Origin: Promethearchaeota archaeon
GTDB lineage: Archaea > Asgardarchaeota > Lokiarchaeia > Sigyniarchaeales > Promethearchaeaceae
Direction: 5' to 3'
Assembly (NCBI GenBank): GCA_016933055.1
Contig: JAFGBS010000004.1
Span: 360,001 to 392,000 of the forward strand
DNA: 32,000 nt
Shown here: one piece after another, positions 1,792-31,302 of the stretch
Layout of the letters: every line of letters starts with the position of its first letter
How positions within the stretch are numbered: the stretch's first letter is position 1
Program-made: the position numbers and the translations under genes
Notes under the pieces: model-generated
What the model was told of the DNA's origin: nothing
Database searches by the model: none
Seen by the model: the letters and a program-made list of their open reading frames with translations, nothing else

Positions 1792-4700
1792 ATGTCGGAG
1801 CAACCAAAATCAGAAGGCAGTTTGAAAAAACAACTGATTTCGTTGGGTATTATTGTAGTCCTTGTAGTGGGAGGATGGTATCTCTCAGCAGTAGTTTCAG
1901 AAGCGATTTTTCAAAGAGGAAAATATGTCTCCGTGGACATATTGGGTGAAACCCCTTTCTTCCCCACGGATAATACTCCGATTTCGCCCCCTAATTTTAC
2001 TCCTCCTGATGATTGGAGTGGTTTCGACCCCTCTTTATTAGATTTATTAGCTGGTTTACCATTTTTGGCGGGGGCATTGGGGAATTTTACGGATCTGGAA
2101 CAATTCAACACAGTTGCTTTCCGTGTGTATGCCGGATCTGCTACTACGTTACAAGATGATAATTTATGGAGATATAGTGCTTATGATGAGTATCAAAGCA
2201 ATGGTTGGGCTCGTTCGGTTGAATATAATTATCCGTTAGATCAGAATTGGAACAGCGGCCTTTTTGCCAACGAATATCAAATTCGTGTTCCCTATGGATC
2301 GGAGCAACAAATTGCAATCGCATTACCCAGCGTTTTCCCTTATCCTGCGGTAAATAATTTCTGGTTGGAACCCGGGACATTTTCGAGTCAAACTCTTAAT
2401 ATTGATTCCCAAAACGGATCGTCTATAACATTTACTCAACAAGATGCGGTAGAAGGAAATTTAACTTATACCTTATATGGTAATAATCCTACCCCCGAGG
2501 ATCAATATCAAAATAACTGTGATGTGCCAGCAAATGCACCACAAATAATTAAAAATCAGTATTTACAGTTCCCAAATGGAGGTAAGGTGCAATATGCAGC
2601 AGATAAACCTAGTTATCAAAACGCAGTTTCCACCATTGAAGGAATTATTTTATCATTATATGGATACATGGGAAACCAAATTCCTTACAATATGCGCACC
2701 TATGACATTGTAGAGATTATCCGCACATATTTAGAAGATAATTTCTCCGTTGACATGTCTTTCCCCTTTGAGAGACCTGGTTCGGGAGATGACGTAGTAG
2801 AATGGTTTCTTTCTCGTGGTTCGGGATTACCGATGGATTTTGCGGCAGCCTTCGTAATGTTATGCCGCTGGTTTGAGGTTCCCTGTAGGTACGCTGCGGG
2901 ATACAACTCAAAATATACCTCAGATGAGTATGATCCTTATTGGAATGGCGGAACAAGTTACCGAGATATCCGAATGGTAAATATGGACGCATGGAATGAG
3001 GTATTTATGCCCATGACGGGGGGATTCCCCAGTGAATTTACACCCATATTATTAACCGATGTCTCATTTCCACCACCACCGAGTAATGGAACAACGGGCG
3101 ATCCCATAAACATTCTTATCAATGGAACCTACTCCACTCAAAGCCTATCCTATCGAGGATTTGATGTAGAAATAACCGCTGAATTACCATCTGGTGCGGA
3201 AAATGAGCCTATTACTTTTTATGATCATACAACCGAAGAAAATTTAGCACAATTATATACGAACTCTTTCGGTCGTGCTTCTTATATTTACTCTTTAGAT
3301 AATAGTATTACTGCAGGGGCTCATTTTATTTCAGTCCAAGCAACGATCTTCCAACGGAATGCGTGTGCCATCATTTTGGATGATGAGGTGCAAGTCATGA
3401 TGACGTCACTCAATCCCACCGTCATCAATAGAGCGACGGAAAATGAAACCCAAGTCATCGCATACATCTACGATCCCGAAAATGGAAATCGTGTGAAAAA
3501 TGCAATCCTGCATCCAGTTGTAGTACAAGGAGGGACTGCAATTTCAGATAGTATAGCCCCGCCAAATGATGCCATTAAAGTGGATGATAATGGTGCAATC
3601 AACAAGCTCGTAACGATATCGGAGTATGTAAGTCAAGGATCATACACATTTCGCGTAGATTTCAATGGCACCTATAGTATAATCGACCCCATAACTGGTC
3701 AACCTCAAGAAATTACGATTCCGGGAGGATTAATTGATGATTCAAGTAATGCCCTCCCATTCACTATTATTGATGACAATCAAAAAATATTTGATCTATA
3801 TGTGGATAGTGGAAGTGTTGGAGAAGATACTGCTTTTTATAAAACCCGTGGTGTTTCGATCGATTTTGATGTTTATCTCCGACAAGGGTTAGTGGATGTA
3901 TCGGGAGGAATTGTCGAAATCCGAGATCGTACCTATGACGATTTTCTTGTAGCTACCTTAATCACAGCGATAGATGGAACCGCTTCTACTACTTATTCGT
4001 TAAGTACGGATTATGCTCATTGGGTTGCTGGTGTTCATGAATTATATGGCATTTGGACGAATGGTGGGGGACGGCTGAATCAATCCTATTATCTTATAGT
4101 GGATGAACCTTTAACAATACAAATAACTAACACTCCTGGTCCCACAGTGGATAGAACGGGAGGTACCTCAGAATTGCAAGTTCAAGGAATTCTCTATGAT
4201 GCAGATCCTCTCGTAATGTCGTATAGTCGCTATGGATGGATGAGTGTTCTATTACGACATGCTACTACTCTAAATGATTACACCAGTGTCTTAACCGGAG
4301 ATATTCCTTATTTCAATAGCCCAACGGGTACATGGACTCGAAATCATGGAGTTCAAGCCACCACTCCTCTTGGAAACTATGAAGTATATGCCGCGTTTAA
4401 TGGGAATTGGGAACTTCCCAACGGTTTTACTGTGTCAGATGCATCGTTTTATGTGGTATCCGCATATAATCTCATTACAATAATTGATCCCAGTGATATT
4501 AATATTGAATTTGAGATTGATGGAACTCCTACACAAACCACGTATTTTGGGTCTTCCGCACCGTCATATACTCGCTACCAAACGGTGAATTTATATGCGC
4601 GAATTTGGCAGGGAGGAATTAATCCGAGCGGAGTAGCGGTGAATTTTTATGATGAAACCACAGGTACTCAAATCGGCTCAACCCAATATACAAACGGATG

Positions 4701-5499
4701 GGGAGAGGTAACGCTCCCTTTCACATTGGGCAACTCCTGGACAGCGGGTCTTAATAAGATTAGCGTAGCGTATGGTACTAATAAAAATTATTCTCAGATT
4801 TACCTAAACGCACCTATGCAAGTATACATAGTTTCATCTCCTCCTACATCTGGAGTGCGTGTATCAGATCAAATGATAATATCTGGGGTGATTCGGGATT
4901 CCCTCAATCTTAATCCTGTTAAGGGTGCTGAAGTCCGATTAGATGTATACGATGGCGCAACTGATAAAACAGATGAAATTACCACTTGGGTTAGTCCCTC
5001 TACAGGTAGGTATACCTTTACCAGTCAATCCGATGGTACATTTCAGATATTATGGAGAATGCCAATCCACTTCCAGTTTAATTATGATGTGAGTGTAACC
5101 TTTACAGGATTTCAGCAAGATCTCTCACCTGAGTGTCAGGCAAATTACAATAATCCGGCACAAGCATCATCTTCAGGGACCTATGTAACTCAAGTAATTG
5201 CGGGAGTGGAATTAACCGCTGAATACTCCCCACATCCATTCGTTATGGGTCAACCCGTATGGGTACGTGGATATTTGACCTATGATAATGGTACGGCTAT
5301 TGTAGGGGAATCGGTTACTATCACTTTTTATGATAGTGGAGATAATCCCTTGCATACCAACACAGTTACCACCAATGGTGCAGGTAATTATACATACTCC
5401 CCAACGCTTACATGGCAATATACGGATACAATTTATGTCGAATATGCGGGTGGAACCGCAATAGATGGCACGAGCACCCAAGCTGCCTATATACCTTAA
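1792..5499 (+). CDS. Large membrane-anchored transglutaminase-like (probable pseudoenzyme) protein with tandem Ig-like beta-sandwich repeats
   Basis: N-terminal TM (LISLGIIVVLVVGGWYL). WRYSAYDEYQSNGW resembles the TgpA N-terminal-type region. The transglutaminase core is VEWFLSRGSGLPMDFAAAFVMLCRWFEVPCRYAAGY...DAWNEV. About 800 aa of beta-rich, Thr/Gly/Tyr-rich repeats follow. Confidence 0.85.
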   Translation: MSEQPKSEGSLKKQLISLGIIVVLVVGGWYLSAVVSEAIFQRGKYVSVDILGETPFFPTDNTPISPPNFTPPDDWSGFDPSLLDLLAGLPFLAGALGNFTDLEQFNTVAFRVYAGSATTLQDDNLWRYSAYDEYQSNGWARSVEYNYPLDQNWNSGLFANEYQIRVPYGSEQQIAIALPSVFPYPAVNNFWLEPGTFSSQTLNIDSQNGSSITFTQQDAVEGNLTYTLYGNNPTPEDQYQNNCDVPANAPQIIKNQYLQFPNGGKVQYAADKPSYQNAVSTIEGIILSLYGYMGNQIPYNMRTYDIVEIIRTYLEDNFSVDMSFPFERPGSGDDVVEWFLSRGSGLPMDFAAAFVMLCRWFEVPCRYAAGYNSKYTSDEYDPYWNGGTSYRDIRMVNMDAWNEVFMPMTGGFPSEFTPILLTDVSFPPPPSNGTTGDPINILINGTYSTQSLSYRGFDVEITAELPSGAENEPITFYDHTTEENLAQLYTNSFGRASYIYSLDNSITAGAHFISVQATIFQRNACAIILDDEVQVMMTSLNPTVINRATENETQVIAYIYDPENGNRVKNAILHPVVVQGGTAISDSIAPPNDAIKVDDNGAINKLVTISEYVSQGSYTFRVDFNGTYSIIDPITGQPQEITIPGGLIDDSSNALPFTIIDDNQKIFDLYVDSGSVGEDTAFYKTRGVSIDFDVYLRQGLVDVSGGIVEIRDRTYDDFLVATLITAIDGTASTTYSLSTDYAHWVAGVHELYGIWTNGGGRLNQSYYLIVDEPLTIQITNTPGPTVDRTGGTSELQVQGILYDADPLVMSYSRYGWMSVLLRHATTLNDYTSVLTGDIPYFNSPTGTWTRNHGVQATTPLGNYEVYAAFNGNWELPNGFTVSDASFYVVSAYNLITIIDPSDINIEFEIDGTPTQTTYFGSSAPSYTRYQTVNLYARIWQGGINPSGVAVNFYDETTGTQIGSTQYTNGWGEVTLPFTLGNSWTAGLNKISVAYGTNKNYSQIYLNAPMQVYIVSSPPTSGVRVSDQMIISGVIRDSLNLNPVKGAEVRLDVYDGATDKTDEITTWVSPSTGRYTFTSQSDGTFQILWRMPIHFQFNYDVSVTFTGFQQDLSPECQANYNNPAQASSSGTYVTQVIAGVELTAEYSPHPFVMGQPVWVRGYLTYDNGTAIVGESVTITFYDSGDNPLHTNTVTTNGAGNYTYSPTLTWQYTDTIYVEYAGGTAIDGTSTQAAYIP

Positions 5500-23474: not shown

Positions 23475-24635
23475 TTAGTGGATAACATTATTACCAATTA
23501 TGTTATTTGTTCCACTATCGATAATCCCATTAGGTAGCGACATCACATCTACAATATTTCCGGTGATTACATTGTATGATCCAGACGCGGTTATCTGTAT
23601 GCCATAACAATTGGAAGGATTAAATGCCGTTATACAGAGAATATTCCCTGTTATTGAAGTATCATTGCCCTCTATATTGATCCCTACTACATTATATCCT
23701 GTGTAAATATCATACATGGTATTATCACTAATGCTATTGTAGGAGGCACTCGTAGTACACCACAAAACCCACACGAATCCACCAGCCGAATAGAAATCAC
23801 ATAAGATATTATTACTTATTATATTACTTTGCGACAAACCTTCCAAATAAATTCCATACATCCACCCCGTATCACCTTCAACAGAATCTAAGTCATATAT
23901 TATGTTCCCGGATAGGATATTAAAACTGGATTCAATTAAATGAATTGCATAAGCATCCCAATCATTTGTCCTTAGTTGAGAAATCGTATTCTCGATAACA
24001 TGGCAATTCCCACTTCCACTATCCATCACGATTCCCTCATACATATTGGTGATGATGCAATTTTCTATCCAAACGTTTTCTGAATTGATGTAAATGCCTC
24101 TCGCAATTCCCCCTTGGATCCTAACATTTTCAATACGCACGAGATTATTGTCATGTTCTGTAATATTTATTCCTTGTATACTTGGTGCAGAAATAGAGGA
24201 TGTATCAATATTCATATTTCTTAATACCATCGACTCCACATCTGTTATTACAAAAGTTTCATCATTGATATTGAGTGAGAGAGTTATCTCCCCTACCCCC
24301 TCTATTATGTAACTTCCTCCCCCATTGATATATATGGTGGAATACAAGGTAATATCTTCCGTAATAAGAATATGCCCCGTTCCCGTCCCTATTGTAATTA
24401 GTGCATCTTCTATTTCCTGTTGTGAAGAACAATAATAGGTATTCGGAACATCAGTCCCATTCAATCCATCTTCTCCGTCCGTACCATTTATTCCAGGAGG
24501 ACCTTGTGGACCTTCGGGACCTTCCGGACCAGTAGTCTCCAACTCGTAGACCATCACGAATGTACCTATGCCTAAACCTGATGCTCCAAGAACTAGCGAC
24601 ACAATAATCAGAGCTTGAGTTTTTCCATTTGACAT
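23475..24635 (-). CDS. Membrane-anchored protein with short collagen-like stalk and right-handed parallel beta-helix (NosD/pectin-lyase-like)
   Basis: N-terminal TM, nine Gly-X-Y triplets, then repeated N-I-I-S-x-N-x-I beta-helix rungs (NILSGNII, NIISNNIL, NSISDNTM, NVITGNIV, NIIGNNVI). Confidence 0.85.
   Translation of the reverse strand: MSNGKTQALIIVSLVLGASGLGIGTFVMVYELETTGPEGPEGPQGPPGINGTDGEDGLNGTDVPNTYYCSSQQEIEDALITIGTGTGHILITEDITLYSTIYINGGGSYIIEGVGEITLSLNINDETFVITDVESMVLRNMNIDTSSISAPSIQGINITEHDNNLVRIENVRIQGGIARGIYINSENVWIENCIITNMYEGIVMDSGSGNCHVIENTISQLRTNDWDAYAIHLIESSFNILSGNIIYDLDSVEGDTGWMYGIYLEGLSQSNIISNNILCDFYSAGGFVWVLWCTTSASYNSISDNTMYDIYTGYNVVGINIEGNDTSITGNILCITAFNPSNCYGIQITASGSYNVITGNIVDVMSLPNGIIDSGTNNIIGNNVIH
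24450..24530 (-). repeat. Collagen-like (Gly-X-Y)9 repeat; 9-nt periodic DNA
   Basis: Encodes GPE GPE GPQ GPP GIN GTD GED GLN GTD; on the + strand GGACC recurs every 9 nt around 24499-24530. Confidence 0.85.
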
Positions 24636-25023: not shown

Positions 25024-26067
25024 TTAGGATATTTTTCTCGGGTAATTTACCATGCTCCCCAAAATTATTAGAAATATTAGAATTGTAATTGAAGTAGATG
25101 TATAGAGAGATTTCAGAAAATTTTCTCGTCGTTGTTCTTCTAATGCTTTTTGTTGAGCCAGAATTTCTGCAATTGGTAGGATTTCATATTCAATTTCTGG
25201 TCCACCATATTCCACTCCTATCAAGAATTCAAAGCAAATGTGCTGATACGCACTAGTGAGCGTGATGTTAGAGGATTGTGAGTAATTTCCTGGCGGAGTG
25301 GGTGCATAGGGGAAATCTATAGACCCTATCTGGAATCTTTGATTGTCTGTTTTACCATGTATGGAGATTTGACCGGTCATCAATTCTAAATCTCCTATAG
25401 ATGAATTCAGACAATATATCAGGTTTAAGGTTGAATTTAGTAATACTCTATAACTCAGATGGTAACTGTTCGAATTAATCCAAAAATGAATAGTACCCGA
25501 AAAATCATATACATTCTCAGCAGAAATACTACTATTCCGAAAAGGTAGTATAATTTCTCCGCTAATTATTGTTATTCCTCCCTCCTCAGAAATGCTTGAT
25601 TGGTATAGCTTTACATCAAGATTTTCGAATCTCAAAGAGGATTCCATATCGGTTTTAATCTCTACTTGGGAATTATCCTTTTGTAATTCACTCATGTTCA
25701 AAACGAACATAGATGTATAGAATTCTAAACCAACGCTTGCTCTTATGCATAAATACATTTGAGTTCGATTGAATAGTTGATCAAGCCTTGTGAAATTTGG
25801 TTCAACTCCTTTCAGAATATCAAAAGAAAAATTAAATTGATACAAAAAATAGTCTTGAAGATCAATTTCCTTCACCGAATAAGAAAAGTCAATATCGGAA
25901 TCCGGAGTTGGATGAATATTACGATAAATTCCTGAACGATTTATCATGCTGTCATCTTCGTGTAGAGAAGAATGGATTATGATATAATACGCTAGCAAAT
26001 TACTTGAGGGTACTGCTAAAATGAATATCGTTCCGATAATAATTGTCCATTTTAATCTTTTATCCAT
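25024..26067 (-). CDS. Hypothetical surface glycoprotein with N- and C-terminal TM anchors (paralog B)
   Basis: Shares blocks such as FNF.FDI.KGVEPNFT, LFNRTQ.YL, DNSQVE, RFENL and S.SE.GG with 18848..19876; about 10 sequons. Confidence 0.8.
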   Translation of the reverse strand: MDKRLKWTIIIGTIFILAVPSSNLLAYYIIIHSSLHEDDSMINRSGIYRNIHPTPDSDIDFSYSVKEIDLQDYFLYQFNFSFDILKGVEPNFTRLDQLFNRTQMYLCIRASVGLEFYTSMFVLNMSELQKDNSQVEIKTDMESSLRFENLDVKLYQSSISEEGGITIISGEIILPFRNSSISAENVYDFSGTIHFWINSNSYHLSYRVLLNSTLNLIYCLNSSIGDLELMTGQISIHGKTDNQRFQIGSIDFPYAPTPPGNYSQSSNITLTSAYQHICFEFLIGVEYGGPEIEYEILPIAEILAQQKALEEQRRENFLKSLYTSTSITILIFLIILGSMVNYPRKIS

Positions 26068-26100: not shown

Positions 26101-27762
26101 TTATTTTTTCTTCTTCTTGTCCATCACTTCTTTTTTTCTGGCCTCCAATGAATGTCTATATCTCGCTTGTCCTCCACTAAAAAAAGCTCCTTTTGTTTCC
26201 CCAACATTTTGACTTCTTTTAATAATCTCTTTCCATTCCTCCTCTTCTGAATCAATTAATTCACTTGCAGAAGATAGGTTTTGCGTTCCCACGTAGTAAT
26301 CACTCGCTAATGTTTTCCGCATCTTCGCTAATTTCTTCTTAGCTTCCTCCATTTGAAATTGCTGTACTAATTTATTCGCTTTTTGGAGTTCTAAATTCGT
26401 GATTAATTCACTGTCGTAATAGTCCTTGAATTCAGAGACATCATCTGTGATTTCATAAGTTGAATGGAGCAGACGTGTCTTCTTGACATCATTTCTATCC
26501 AAATAATCTAACTGAATTTGGACATCGGCTTTTTTCTGAGTAGTAGATTTTGTTTTATGGAATTTCAGATACAATTCTCGGTTTGGATCCAGCGCTCCAA
26601 GGCTAATGGGAACACCTGATTTTTTGGGTATATTTTGCACATAAATACCTTCAATTTCTTCTAGTTCTAAGAAATCGGGATAAAATACTCTGAGGATCGC
26701 ATTTCGAGCAATATAATTCTTACTTTCTAAATGTTTAAAGGTGCTTTCGATGAGATCTTTTGAGATCAGAGACACCTCTCCTCCCGTAATATCCGTGATT
26801 TTTCCAATCAAATCAAGTGCCATTTGGCTGCTACCGTCATCCACACCGATTAAATCCATAATCACCCCTTTCTGGCGTGCTCTATTTGCTAGATTAGAAT
26901 AAAATTCTTCTGCCTTGGACTTGTTGCCACCCTCTATCATTCCCATGCCAACATTTGCCAACCCATCAGTAAGCAAAATAAGTCTCGCACTTTTCTTACC
27001 CCGTTTCAAGATCTTTCGTTCTGTTAAGATTTGACCACAAAATAATGCCGGTCCCAATGCAGTATAATGAAGAGGAGTTAGTTGTTCAATTTTGCGAATC
27101 CACTCGTCTCCAAATTCCGATACTGGACCAACATGAGCATTTTCAAGTTCTTTAATCAAGAAATTTTCCAGATTTGCTTCAGAAAAAATATGCTCTTCTT
27201 TCCGGATTTCTAGATGCTCATGGGGAGTTGAATAGATTGATACCTCACTGGTAAATGTGATCAACACGAAAACACTGGAAGGGTTATTTACTTTCAAATT
27301 TTTGATCGTCTGGATTAACGAATGCTTTACTGCTTCTAATTTTCCCCGGAACATGGAACCTGAAACATCGATTATAGCAATCAAAGCTTCACCCCGATCT
27401 TTCTTTATTTCACTGTCCTCTTCTGTTTTTGCTGTAGGTTCTTGAATCTCTTTGAATAATATGTGTAAATCTTCGGATTTTCCCTCAGTCTTTTCTTTTT
27501 CTTCTAAAACTTCCATATTGGTAATTTCATACTTATTATCATTACCGCAAAACTCACAATTCCATGAAATAGAATTTCCCATTTTCTTAAGGCTACTCGT
27601 ATCAGAGACTATAGCTCCACAAAATGCGCAAATAATTGGAATGAACGATTTTTCCTCGACATCTTGCTCTAATTTTTCCATATTTAAAGCTAATATTAAT
27701 GGAAGATCTTCTACTTCAGAAGTTTTTTTCCCGATAATTTTTTTGAATCCTTTACGTAACAT
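26101..27762 (-). CDS. Sec23/Sec24-type zinc finger plus vWA domain protein (CPRas1-like module, no Ras domain)
   Basis: Probable start is the Met at 27762 (the track ORF extends into the upstream gene). PIICAFCGA-x17-WNCEFCGNDN zinc finger; MIDAS DVSGS...TALGPAL...LLTDGLANVG; beta-rich segment; helical C-terminus. Confidence 0.8.
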   Translation of the reverse strand: MLRKGFKKIIGKKTSEVEDLPLILALNMEKLEQDVEEKSFIPIICAFCGAIVSDTSSLKKMGNSISWNCEFCGNDNKYEITNMEVLEEKEKTEGKSEDLHILFKEIQEPTAKTEEDSEIKKDRGEALIAIIDVSGSMFRGKLEAVKHSLIQTIKNLKVNNPSSVFVLITFTSEVSIYSTPHEHLEIRKEEHIFSEANLENFLIKELENAHVGPVSEFGDEWIRKIEQLTPLHYTALGPALFCGQILTERKILKRGKKSARLILLTDGLANVGMGMIEGGNKSKAEEFYSNLANRARQKGVIMDLIGVDDGSSQMALDLIGKITDITGGEVSLISKDLIESTFKHLESKNYIARNAILRVFYPDFLELEEIEGIYVQNIPKKSGVPISLGALDPNRELYLKFHKTKSTTQKKADVQIQLDYLDRNDVKKTRLLHSTYEITDDVSEFKDYYDSELITNLELQKANKLVQQFQMEEAKKKLAKMRKTLASDYYVGTQNLSSASELIDSEEEEWKEIIKRSQNVGETKGAFFSGGQARYRHSLEARKKEVMDKKKKK

Positions 27763-27794
27763 CGGATAAAATATGAAAAGGGGATTATTTAATA

Positions 27795-28199
27795 TTAATC
27801 CCAATTGACAATGGGTCTTCCAAACGAATCCTTGAACGATCCCGTTAAGATAACAATTAAATCGATGAGCAACCCAATTCCGAATAATCCCCCGGTTACT
27901 AACCACAGGATACCCATCCCAATTCGTCCCACATAAAAGTAATGCACCCCTAATGCTCCGAAGAATACCCACAACAATAATGTAATTAATCTGGATTTCG
28001 GGGAGATAGGATAGTTAGAAGAATCAGATTGTCTATATTCCGGTCTATGAACGTTGACTTTAATTGTTGAGGAATAATGACCTGAAGAAGACTGATCGGA
28101 ATACGTCTGTTCAGCATCGGTGTAGAGAATTTTGGTTCCACAATACTCGCAAAATTTTGATCGTTCATCTAATTTTGCACCACAACTTGCACAATACAT
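27795..28199 (-). CDS. Double zinc-ribbon plus TM2 domain protein
   Basis: Probable start MYCASCGAKLDERSKFCEYCG (ATG at 28199); TM2 motif KSRLITLLLWVFFGALGVHYFYVGRIGMGILWLVTGGLFGIGLLIDLIVILTGSFKD. Confidence 0.9.
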   Translation of the reverse strand: MYCASCGAKLDERSKFCEYCGTKILYTDAEQTYSDQSSSGHYSSTIKVNVHRPEYRQSDSSNYPISPKSRLITLLLWVFFGALGVHYFYVGRIGMGILWLVTGGLFGIGLLIDLIVILTGSFKDSFGRPIVNWD

Positions 28200-28491
28200 G
28201 ATAATTATATTAAGGATCGTTAATCTAAAGAACGATCGGGGGTCCATTTTTTATCCGACCTAATTTTTGATGTTTTTATGGTTTTTTTTTGAAGTGTTAT
28301 TGCGTATAATAATCATCATATAAAAATTCACAATTTTGAGCAGTAATATGCAATAAGCAATTTCAAACAAAAATTGGATTGAAAATTCAACCTATCAAAT
28401 ATATTAGTAAAGAAATATAGAATCGGGATGACATGATTCTAAATTATCTTTTAATATGGCAATATTCCCCTCTCTAATAATGACCTAGTAG

Positions 28492-29465: not shown

Positions 29466-30869
29466 TTATCGTTTAATGTTTTTTTCAAAATGCTTTTCGA
29501 AGAAATTTTGCACCCGTCTGGCTTCATCCCGCTCTCCTGCCTGGTGGTAAATTATCATCGATTTGTTAAAGATTTGTCCAGCGTCTTGCTTGTGACCGAG
29601 TTTATAATAGCAGTGACCCAACCCCTCAAGCATGTGGGCAATCATATCGGCATCTTTTGATTTGAAAACGTCTTTTAAGACCAAACGATAAGATTTTGCT
29701 AAGCGGAGCCACAATCTGTCGTCAGGTTGAGCATCGGGATAGTGAATTTCCACATCATCCATTTCTTCGGGGATCGCCCGTTCCAAAATAAGTTGACTCA
29801 TCACTTGAATGGTCTCCTTAAGCAAGATTTTTCCTTCCTTGTCCGTTTGTATAAAGAGTCCCATGATTTGGTGGGCTTCGGGGGGAATCTCTCCAGAGAG
29901 AATGGCTTCCATGGTGTACTGACTAAAACCATACTCTTCTAAATGCCCTCCTTCTTCGAGTTCGGCGATTTCGTTCTGTACTCGTTTCCACTTGAGGTAT
30001 TTTGCTAGCCAGAATTTGTAGATCAAAAACATAAGAATCAGGACGACAGCCGCGCAGAGGATCAAAGTGTTGAATTGGGCAGAACCGGTTTTAATAAACT
30101 CATCCAATAACTCAGGGTCACTTAACACCTCAATGATAGGACGATCTTCGGAATTCATTTTCGACCCAATGAATGTGAAGAATAAACTCCGGGGAATGGA
30201 TCCGATCAAGGTAGTGAGGTAGTAGTCGCGTCTTTTGATCCCAAGAAACCCGGCTGCAAAAGAGATATGATCGAAGGGGATTGCTGGAATTGCACGGCTG
30301 ATAAGTAGGGTGGGATTGCCATATTTATACATATAATAGTCAACGACATATAAGTCGTCTCCAATAAATTTCTCTGCGACCGGTTTGCCTCCCCGAATAC
30401 CGATTTCATAACATAAAGCAGCGGTGAGTAACAACCCTGCTATTGCCATTCCAGTGCCGATCCACAGCCCCCACAGTAACCCGCAAGCAAGTAGCATGAG
30501 TTCCGAAGGGAGGGGGGCTATAACTCCTTGAAGTGCCATGAAAATAAAAAAAAGGACGATTCCCCATCCCCCGAGCGTTACAATCGGCCGGATAAAATAT
30601 TTCAGAACCAATCCGAACATCCAGCTAGAATCCTGCACGAGTTTGATAGTTAAAACTACAGTAAGTAAGATGATAAAAACTATTAACCCAAACCAGAACC
30701 ATGTCTTTAGATCAAGACCTGTAAATGCCTTTTTGAACCGAATTTTAATCGGGATTTTTACTTTAGCGACTCTAGGTTTCGCATATTCATCGATGTGTGC
30801 ATCCATTTCTGACTCTTCATCGGTATAGGCAGTAGGCTGATTATCTTGTTTCTCCGAGTCAGAAATCAT
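29466..30869 (-). CDS. TVP38/TMEM64 (DedA/VTT) family membrane protein fused to a C-terminal soluble helical/TPR-like domain
   Basis: LQGVIAPLPSELMLLACGLLWG...LLISRAIPAIPFDHISFAAG...YYLTTLIGSIP is the VTT/DedA core; about 150 extra C-terminal aa end in LEGLGHCYYKLGHKQDAGQIFNKSMIIY (TPR-like). Start probably ATG 30869 or 30806. Confidence 0.85.
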   Translation of the reverse strand: MISDSEKQDNQPTAYTDEESEMDAHIDEYAKPRVAKVKIPIKIRFKKAFTGLDLKTWFWFGLIVFIILLTVVLTIKLVQDSSWMFGLVLKYFIRPIVTLGGWGIVLFFIFMALQGVIAPLPSELMLLACGLLWGLWIGTGMAIAGLLLTAALCYEIGIRGGKPVAEKFIGDDLYVVDYYMYKYGNPTLLISRAIPAIPFDHISFAAGFLGIKRRDYYLTTLIGSIPRSLFFTFIGSKMNSEDRPIIEVLSDPELLDEFIKTGSAQFNTLILCAAVVLILMFLIYKFWLAKYLKWKRVQNEIAELEEGGHLEEYGFSQYTMEAILSGEIPPEAHQIMGLFIQTDKEGKILLKETIQVMSQLILERAIPEEMDDVEIHYPDAQPDDRLWLRLAKSYRLVLKDVFKSKDADMIAHMLEGLGHCYYKLGHKQDAGQIFNKSMIIYHQAGERDEARRVQNFFEKHFEKNIKR

Positions 30870-31302
30870 CTTTCTATATATACAACAAAAGCGAAATTTA
30901 TGAATCTTTTGTGCAGGCAGTCGATATTTAACCATTTTTTTATGTAATCAACATATAATCGGGTATTTCCGAATAATATCTTAGCCCATTTACTTAACAC
31001 CACCATAAAACAACGTGATACATATAAATCGGAATCAAACTGTGATTTTACATTAGGATGGATAGGTAACACGATTGCTAACACATCTTGATTCGTTTAA
31101 ATACCCCGAGCAAATGTTAATAGTAGAAGTCCTCGGTATGGGAACGTAATCCAATTGGAAGATCCAAAGCCGAATACGTAGTATGATCTACATTCATCAA
31201 TTCACGGATAGCCAAATTGACAGAAGTTCGTACGAGATGCCTCATGATCACTTAAGGTAATATTTTTGGGTATCACGGGATGAATTTTGACACAATAATT
31301 GA

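Follow-up and report, generated by a model that had tools for sequence, protein, structure and literature searches.

The locus and its product

The window analysed here is a stretch of 32,000 nucleotides from a Promethearchaeota archaeon (assembly GCA_016933055.1, contig JAFGBS010000004.1, positions 360,001 to 392,000), and the gene under study is the minus-strand coding sequence at 26101-27762, whose 553-residue product resembles the Sec23 and Sec24 subunits of COPII vesicle coats and, more closely, the eukaryotic CPRas1-type proteins. A rival, longer frame with a GTG start would give 623 residues, extending up to 27972 and running into an upstream gene for a TM2 protein. Homologues start with an N-terminal motif, M-[FL]-[RK]-x-[SG]-F-K, that aligns with the start of the 553-residue version, and the ATG at 27762 is thus taken as the start of the gene. 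The gene is present in one copy in its genome (3.76 Mb, 91% complete), and the 553-residue sequence contains neither a signal peptide nor a transmembrane segment. An antisense open reading frame of 105 residues within the gene (27452-27769, plus strand) is probably spurious. The parts of the gene are as follows, with boundaries that draw on an AlphaFold2 model and its per-residue confidence (predicted local distance difference test, pLDDT) and with the metal ion-dependent adhesion site abbreviated as MIDAS.

26101-27762, minus strand: whole coding sequence, 553 residues plus stop; Asgard Sec23/24-like (CPRas-type) protein, from the open reading frame, its translation and homologues
27640-27762, minus strand: N-terminal strands, residues 1-41; model strands E2-4, E8-10, E22-27 and E36-38; conserved M-F-x-x-S-F start
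27526-27639, minus strand: Cys4 zinc finger of Sec23/Sec24 type, residues 42-79; C45, C48, C69, C72 and N76; Pfam zf-Sec23_Sec24
27388-27525, minus strand: acidic Lys/Glu-rich linker, residues 80-125; partly disordered, pLDDT <50 at 92-94 and 109-120
26719-27387, minus strand: vWA trunk, residues 126-348; Pfam Sec23_trunk, VWA and VWA_2; complete MIDAS
27355-27369, minus strand: MIDAS D132-x-S134-x-S136, within the vWA trunk
27061-27063, minus strand: MIDAS T234, within the vWA trunk
26965-26967, minus strand: MIDAS D266, within the vWA trunk
26440-26718, minus strand: beta-sandwich, residues 349-441; Pfam Sec23_BS; model strands 352-439
26104-26439, minus strand: helical domain, residues 442-553; helices 442-552, pLDDT >90; structural alignment to Sec23A
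26104-26148, minus strand: polybasic tail, residues 539-553; C-terminal end of the helical domain, after a conserved G-Q-x3-R-x-S motif

The zinc finger reads C45-x2-C48-x20-C69-x2-C72, with W67 and N76 in place. The MIDAS motifs of the trunk are IDVSGSM (131-137), TALGPAL (234-240) and LLTDGLANVGMG (263-274); further along, FYSNLANRA begins at residue 287 and TGGEV occupies 326-330. The original prediction, made from the letters of the window and a list of its open reading frames, had named IDVSGSM, TALGPAL, FYSNLANRA and TGGEV, and all four are where it placed them. It had likewise read the protein as a Sec23/24-type CxxC-x20-CxxC zinc finger followed by an acidic linker, a vWA domain with a complete MIDAS, a beta-rich segment and a helical tail, a layout on which sequence motifs and the AlphaFold2 model agree; the finger itself has a weak Pfam match and aligns with the Sec24 finger in a profile comparison.

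Domain matches and predicted structure

Three Pfam models of Sec23 domains matched the window protein, and they stand in Sec23 order. Sec23_trunk (PF04811) scored 38.1 bits against a cut-off of 27 (residues 130-333), and the zinc finger (zf-Sec23_Sec24, E = 0.036, residues 42-77) and the beta-sandwich (Sec23_BS, PF08033, E = 0.012, residues 354-431) fell under theirs. Across 38 family members, the trunk was matched in all 38, the sandwich in 37 (best E = 3.3e-11) and the zinc finger in 13 at E ≤ 0.01 (best E = 8.4e-5). Neither Sec23_helical nor the gelsolin model gave a match in any of the 38; the helical domain is recognised by structure only, and the window protein stops at its end. No Ras or other GTPase domain was found by Pfam in the 553 residues.

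The AlphaFold2 model, built from 49 sequences, has a pLDDT of 88.1 and a predicted template modelling score (pTM) of 0.87, with the acidic linker as its sole uncertain part. It runs from the N-terminal strands through the zinc finger and the linker to an alpha/beta trunk (126-348), a beta-sandwich (352-439) and a helical domain (442-552). When the Protein Data Bank (PDB) was searched with Foldseek, ranks 1-46 were all occupied by Sec23/Sec24-type chains (best E = 1.9e-27, TM-score 0.71 by query), and from rank 47 onward came the Catenulispora vWA protein 4fx5 (E = 2.7e-16) and ArnB (8s05). An alignment to Sec23A with VIA-align spans model residues 1-553 and Sec23A residues 16-636 (Z = 28.3, 503 residues, root-mean-square deviation 4.0). 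In this alignment the N-terminal strands are superimposed on strands of the Sec23/24 N-terminal beta-barrel, with model residue 1 paired with Sec23A residue 16, and the match ends where the gelsolin domain of Sec23A starts.

Of the five domains of Sec23/24 the protein thus has four, arranged as they are there, with the N-terminal strands presumably joining the beta-sandwich, and lacks the gelsolin-like domain. The model suggests that domain order and packing are alike over about 505 residues, at 13-17% identity, but Sec24 and Sec23 proper carry a gelsolin-like domain and Sec23 an arginine-finger element that acts as GTPase-activating protein (GAP), and the window protein has neither. COPII also has a Sec23/Sec24 pair, where the window's genome carries a single gene copy. 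That the protein would have no Ras domain and no gelsolin-like domain had been anticipated from the sequence, and both absences are borne out, by Pfam and by a structural alignment that ends at about residue 636 of Sec23A.

Among the best structural matches (Z = 27.4) are Sec23/Sec24-named subunits of the Toxoplasma pre-conoid ring (PDB 9ya0, chains GA, GB, GC, GF and GH). Since these ring subunits share the fold, the Sec23/24 fold is used outside COPII vesicle coats.

Closeness to CPRas-type proteins

Against the Swiss-Prot models, the first-ranked Foldseek match was not a coat subunit but Dictyostelium CPRas1 (Q75J93, residues 285-817, E = 2.8e-35, 22% identity), with Sec23 and Sec24 behind it (E about 1e-27, 13-16% identity). 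A word-indexed search returned about 80 Asgard homologues at 24-48% identity; those with a lineage name belong to Lokiarchaeota/Promethearchaeota (including Lokiarchaeum ossiferum, P0013), Thor-, Hel-, Hermod-, Frey- and Sigynarchaeota. Behind them came eukaryotic vWA proteins of Paramecium, Entamoeba, Stentor, Lottia and Stylonychia, together with fish proteins named 'circularly permutated Ras protein 1'. Two further word-index searches, for longer relatives, brought up no Sec23/Sec24 sequence; one of them yielded a Paratrimastix CPRas1 and an actin-WW fusion only. When 1.84 billion representatives were searched exhaustively with a profile, 4651 matched at E ≤ 1e-3, 580 of them at E ≤ 1e-30; about 54 Asgard-type clusters (at 50% identity) headed the list, eukaryote-type proteins at 200-237 bits came next, and Asgard and CPRas-like clusters filled the best 150 rows.

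We measured the distances with three profiles, one of Asgard sequences only, one of CPRas-like sequences only and one combining both. The Asgard-only profile scored 200-237 bits to eukaryotic CPRas-like proteins, compared with 62.9 bits to yeast Sec24, 34 bits to ArnB and 29.8 bits to Sec23. The CPRas-like-only profile gave 60 bits to Sec24A, 51 bits to yeast Sec24 and 36 bits to Sec23, and ArnB was not listed for it at E ≤ 1e-5. When the Asgard and CPRas-like profiles were aligned directly with hhalign, they matched over 452 columns (probability 100, E = 9e-78). Judged by these profile scores and the hhalign result, the Asgard and CPRas-like proteins are mutually close and about equally far from Sec24 and Sec23. 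With yeast Sec24 (E = 1e-24) the combined profile formed a single alignment over its positions 44-477, which runs from the zinc finger to the start of the helical domain; Sec23A was reached at E = 2e-10 and ArnB at E = 2e-11. A search of the PDB with the single sequence returned only ArnB (E = 0.09), so a profile is required to detect Sec24 there.

A quick maximum-likelihood tree of 101 rows, grouped by rank and length with names for some and with Sec23/24 sequences left out, separates 58 Asgard-type from 43 eukaryote-type rows by one long branch with full support (100 in the Shimodaira-Hasegawa-like approximate likelihood ratio test). The window protein falls in an 8-row clade with a Lokiarchaeota-named protein, beside the L. 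ossiferum clade. By profile score, CPRas1-type zinc-finger/vWA proteins are the closest eukaryotic relatives of the family, and Sec24 and Sec23 lie further off. The original prediction had proposed a likeness to the CPRas1 vWA domain, which is supported by the rank of CPRas1 among Swiss-Prot models, the hhalign match and the invariant columns described below; its wider proposal of a prokaryotic member of a Sec23/CPRas superfamily agrees with the order of the Pfam domains, the profile match to Sec24 and the first 46 ranks in the PDB.

With CPRas1 and other cpRAS-VWA proteins the window protein has in common the Cys4 zinc finger, the motifs DxSGSM, TALGPA and TDGLANxGxG of the vWA/Sec23 trunk, the beta-sandwich and the helical part. 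CPRas1, however, carries a cpRAS GTPase domain at its N-terminus, which the window protein is without, and it is therefore like the Ras-less relatives of the family and not a CPRas protein proper. Such Ras-less relatives of cpRAS-VWA proteins have been described in ciliates, Entamoeba and Lottia (Elias and Novotny 2008, PMC2430557). Several eukaryotic relatives (e.g., P0160, P0217 and P0238) join an N-terminal Ras domain to the Sec23 zinc finger, trunk and sandwich, the cpRAS-VWA layout described by Elias and Novotny (PMC2430557); Ras domains among the relatives occur only in eukaryotic rows. Further eukaryote-type relatives (P0260, P0259, P0113 and P0223) carry the CPRas-like module fused to actin and WW domains (1230 residues), to a Deltex C-terminal domain (Paratrimastix), to CARD (sponge) or to Ras and a C-terminal RING. 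Extra domains of these kinds are frequent in eukaryotic CPRas-type members and lacking in the window protein.

Conservation of the zinc and metal ligands

A complete MIDAS (D-x-S-x-S, Thr, Asp), a putative metal site, is present and invariant across the Asgard family: the four cysteines and D132, S134, S136, T234 and D266 are unchanged at every aligned position of 113 Asgard-type rows. Among 147 eukaryote-type rows, 146 retain T234 and D266, and of the 133 rows aligned at DxSxS about 107 retain those residues. Invariant positions shared by the Asgard and eukaryotic rows are the four cysteines, D132, S134, S136, M137, T234, L236, G237 and P238, followed by T265, D266, G267, N270 and G274. In the profile alignment D-V-S-Q-S and ALGPAL are still found in Sec24, but the T-D-G of the family is replaced there by S-G-T, so that yeast Sec24 has lost the MIDAS aspartate; where the window protein has Thr-Asp, yeast Sec24 has Ser-Gly. 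The C-terminus is conserved in character: the last 15 residues of the Asgard homologues have a median net charge of +5, and 73 of 98 full-length rows reach at least +4.

A published Asgard family with a patchy distribution

The window protein is a new member of an already published family. Asgard Sec23-like proteins were reported to have all Sec23 domains except gelsolin and to return Sec23 in Foldseek, and they are viewed as a coat precursor (PMC11914678, Nat Commun 2025); Sec23/24-domain proteins are also listed among Asgard trafficking homologues (10.1101/2025.11.06.686947). Nothing essential sets the window protein apart from the published ones, to which it adds an uncharacterised protein of a further Asgard genome. 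The expectation that the protein is a candidate eukaryotic-signature protein, with Sec23/24 homologues in some Asgard lineages, therefore holds, in that the family has been published as an Asgard signature protein. The text of PMC11914678 has zero occurrences of 'MIDAS' and no mention of CPRas or of gene neighbours, and the literature searched contained nothing joining 'Asgard' with 'cpRAS', nor 'Asgard' with 'Sec24' and 'MIDAS'. The angle that appears unpublished is the closeness of the Asgard family to CPRas-type proteins, together with its invariant MIDAS.

The gene occurs in 71 of 201 sampled genomes of the phylum, a patchy distribution, and is near-universal in some Asgard families (40/43, 13/19 and 6/6). 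In a species-level genome collection the named loci are mostly from Thorarchaeota, with others from Frey-, Hermod- and Jordarchaeota and one 'Odinarchaeota' record.

Small GTPase genes beside the homologues

Synteny of the Sec23-like gene across the phylum holds only within lineages. In Thorarchaeota, most of 22 loci show the order Roadblock (minus), Sec23-like (plus), Roadblock (plus), Roadblock (plus), small GTPase (plus), Roadblock (plus). The GTPase of this array (L029:7440-11749, L060-L081) is Arf/MglA-like, an SMC gene lies upstream, and no description of the array was found in the literature read for the analysis. In two related Promethearchaeota (L051:3435-7650 and L052:3927-7650), a gene of the Rce1-like CAAX-protease family and a Ras-family GTPase gene lie on the same strand, 1.2-2.5 kb upstream of the homologue; this GTPase scores 152 bits to Pfam Ras.

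A different small GTPase gene lies directly upstream of the homologue in a further genome (G030). This GTPase is a widespread and mostly single-copy Asgard gene (134 of 201 genomes), and it occurs in 34 of the 41 genomes of an order in which three carry the Sec23-like gene. With such a spread and no co-occurrence of the two genes, we rejected this adjacency as a functional link, as it is probably due to chance. For the three separate juxtapositions together (Thorarchaeota, G030 and L051/L052), a rough estimate of the probability of their arising by chance is about 0.04, which assumes about 11 lineages and about a 7% chance per lineage, both picked after seeing the data. Overall the juxtapositions are a lead and not a result. 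Because genomes of this kind carry 26-73 Ras-family genes each, only the Thorarchaeal array counts as a solid lead, and it comes from a single lineage.

At one other locus (L040:9708-13736), a JAB/JAMM-domain gene and a gene with weak RING-finger matches adjoin homologue P0009, a single case of a possible ubiquitin-type link.

Proposed function and alternative readings

Taken as a whole, we consider it highly probable that the protein is a cytosolic Asgard member of the Sec23/24-like group, closest among eukaryotic proteins to the CPRas1 type, that it likely serves as a MIDAS-dependent adaptor, and that it is not a COPII subunit. The last part follows from the missing gelsolin domain: without it there is no Sec23-type arginine finger, and the window protein is not a functional COPII subunit. 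By analogy with other MIDAS vWA domains, Mg2+ (or Mn2+) bound at the site would capture an acidic side chain of a partner, so that the protein would act as a protein-protein adaptor, while the zinc finger, barrel and helical domains would offer a second binding surface and the conserved polybasic tail may hold the protein at an anionic membrane. The protein may also act downstream of, or together with, a small GTPase, a role suggested by the eukaryotic Ras fusions, the Thorarchaeal array and the precedent of Sec23, described as a Sar1 effector (Bi et al. 2002, as cited in PMC11914678). The original prediction had suggested a small-GTPase partner or a proto-coat component as possible roles, and both are conjectural.

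Several points weigh against this reading. The putative role of the MIDAS is drawn from conservation and the putative membrane contact of the tail from its charge, and three Asgard Sec23-like proteins co-precipitated only weakly, and in a nucleotide-independent manner, with one Asgard Arf in yeast (PMC11914678). The genomic context gives no functional clue for the window copy, as the neighbourhood is unconserved even among its closest relatives. Furthermore, the gene is found in just 3 of 41 genomes of the window's own order, and many sampled Asgard families are without a match; being missing from most of its own order and from these families, it does not provide a core function.

The case that parts of the eukaryotic trafficking machinery predate eukaryotes draws, among other Asgard genes, on those for Sec23/24-like proteins. 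The window copy adds no new kind of protein to that case, but the analysis sharpens what the family is: a group with an invariant MIDAS and no GAP domain that lies much closer, by score, to CPRas-type proteins than to COPII. We tentatively extend the adaptor reading to an evolutionary one, which is possible although we would put it somewhat below an even chance. Asgard Sec23-like proteins would be archaeal counterparts of the CPRas-type family and not direct forerunners of COPII, the ancestral protein having been a MIDAS-dependent effector platform for small GTPases. In Thorarchaeota the ancestral module would still share an array with genes for Roadblock regulators and a GTPase; fusion of the module to a Ras domain in eukaryotes would have produced CPRas1; and the line leading to Sec23/Sec24 would have duplicated the module, lost the MIDAS aspartate and gained the gelsolin domain. 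Should the CPRas relationship hold in a proper phylogeny that includes Sec23/24, the label 'coat precursor' would need qualifying. If so, learning what the little-studied eukaryotic CPRas-type vWA proteins do would help to find the archaeal function, and vice versa.

The alternative that survives best sees the protein as an ArnB-like signalling scaffold, in which the zinc finger of ArnA is fused to an ArnB module and partners are switched by phosphorylation in the regulation of gene expression or motility. ArnB (vWA2) of Sulfolobus acidocaldarius (PDB 8S05, 5A8J) has a vWA domain, an eight-stranded beta-sandwich and a C-terminal helical domain in common with the window protein, and VIA-align gives Z = 23.9 over 355 residues for ArnB (8s05) and Z = 22.5 for its paralogue 5a8j, in line with the combined-profile match reported above. 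In the crystal structure of ArnAB the zinc finger of ArnA lies packed against two parts of ArnB, its beta-sandwich and its C-terminal domain, and the authors of the structure class ArnAB as an archaeal relative of the Sec23/24 core motif (PMC12852372); the fusion of eukaryotic relatives to signalling domains (Ras, RING, Deltex-C and CARD) would suit a scaffold as well. However, the zinc finger of ArnAB resides on a separate FHA protein and that of the window protein is fused, ArnB is about 170 residues shorter and covers the vWA, sandwich and helical parts only, and its sequence similarity (34 bits) is far below that of CPRas-like proteins (200 bits and more) and below that of Sec24. Nor did Pfam detect an FHA, kinase or phosphatase gene among 20 neighbours in the window. 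We judge this alternative unlikely.

Less credit still is given to a working proto-COPII inner-coat subunit, which an Arf/Sar-like GTPase would recruit to membranes, and which would bend them or sort cargo by polymerising. The fold over some 505 residues, the polybasic tail, the 46 Ras-superfamily GTPase matches in the window's genome, the GTPase and Roadblock neighbours in Thorarchaeota and the published view of the family as a coat precursor are all consistent with it. Against these stand the absence of the gelsolin domain and its GAP finger, the lack of key Sar1-contact residues in Asgard Sec23-like proteins (PMC11914678), the weak and nucleotide-independent co-precipitation, the patchy distribution and an intact MIDAS where yeast Sec24 has lost it. 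We regard such a subunit as quite improbable.

Two further readings are already contradicted and can hardly be credited. A generic prokaryotic vWA protein of YfbK or chelatase type, bearing an unrelated zinc ribbon and only superficially like Sec23, would fit the NCBIfam result (weak chelatase-type vWA matches only), the bacterial loci of the species-level collection (which match the vWA part only, at E = 1e-8 to 1e-4) and the presence of 4fx5 among the structural matches, but one hidden Markov model alignment to Sec24 (E = 1e-24) takes in all five motif-bearing regions, Sec23/24 chains outrank every bacterial vWA in the structure searches, and the zinc finger fits the Sec23/24 model in 13 of 38 relatives; the YfbK-type case, which the original prediction had named as its refutation, was thus not seen. 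A gene recently acquired from a eukaryote, or an assembly contaminated with eukaryotic DNA, could be suspected from the eukaryotic identity of the nearest non-Asgard relatives, but the tree splits the two groups cleanly with no nesting, the Asgard clade is deep and spans Loki-, Thor-, Hel-, Hermod-, Frey-, Jord- and Sigynarchaeota-named lineages, and the gene is without introns on a contig of 426,971 bp.

Neighbouring genes in the window

The Sec23-like gene lies between two minus-strand genes. The one 32 bp upstream (27795-28247) encodes a 150-residue protein with an N-terminal zinc ribbon and a C-terminal TM2 domain. The one 33 bp downstream (25024-26067) encodes a 347-residue protein with hydrophobic segments at both ends and many N-x-S/T sites, which matched no Pfam family and is possibly a surface glycoprotein. 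Co-transcription of the three genes in the window is possible. A conserved three-gene operon was considered and rejected: in the four closest relatives with available context (P0002, P0003, P0007 and P0009) the neighbours are unrelated.

Three other genes of the window have recognisable domains. Two genes upstream of the Sec23-like gene and in the same direction, 29466-30935 (minus strand) encodes a 489-residue VTT/DedA membrane protein (PF09335, E = 2.7e-21) with long N- and C-terminal extensions. The product of 23475-24635 (minus strand, 386 residues) combines an N-terminal membrane anchor with a short collagen-like G-x-y run and a right-handed beta-helix (PF13229), and that of 1792-5499 (plus strand, 1235 residues) has a transglutaminase-like core with weak Ig-like/MG2-type matches near its C-terminus.

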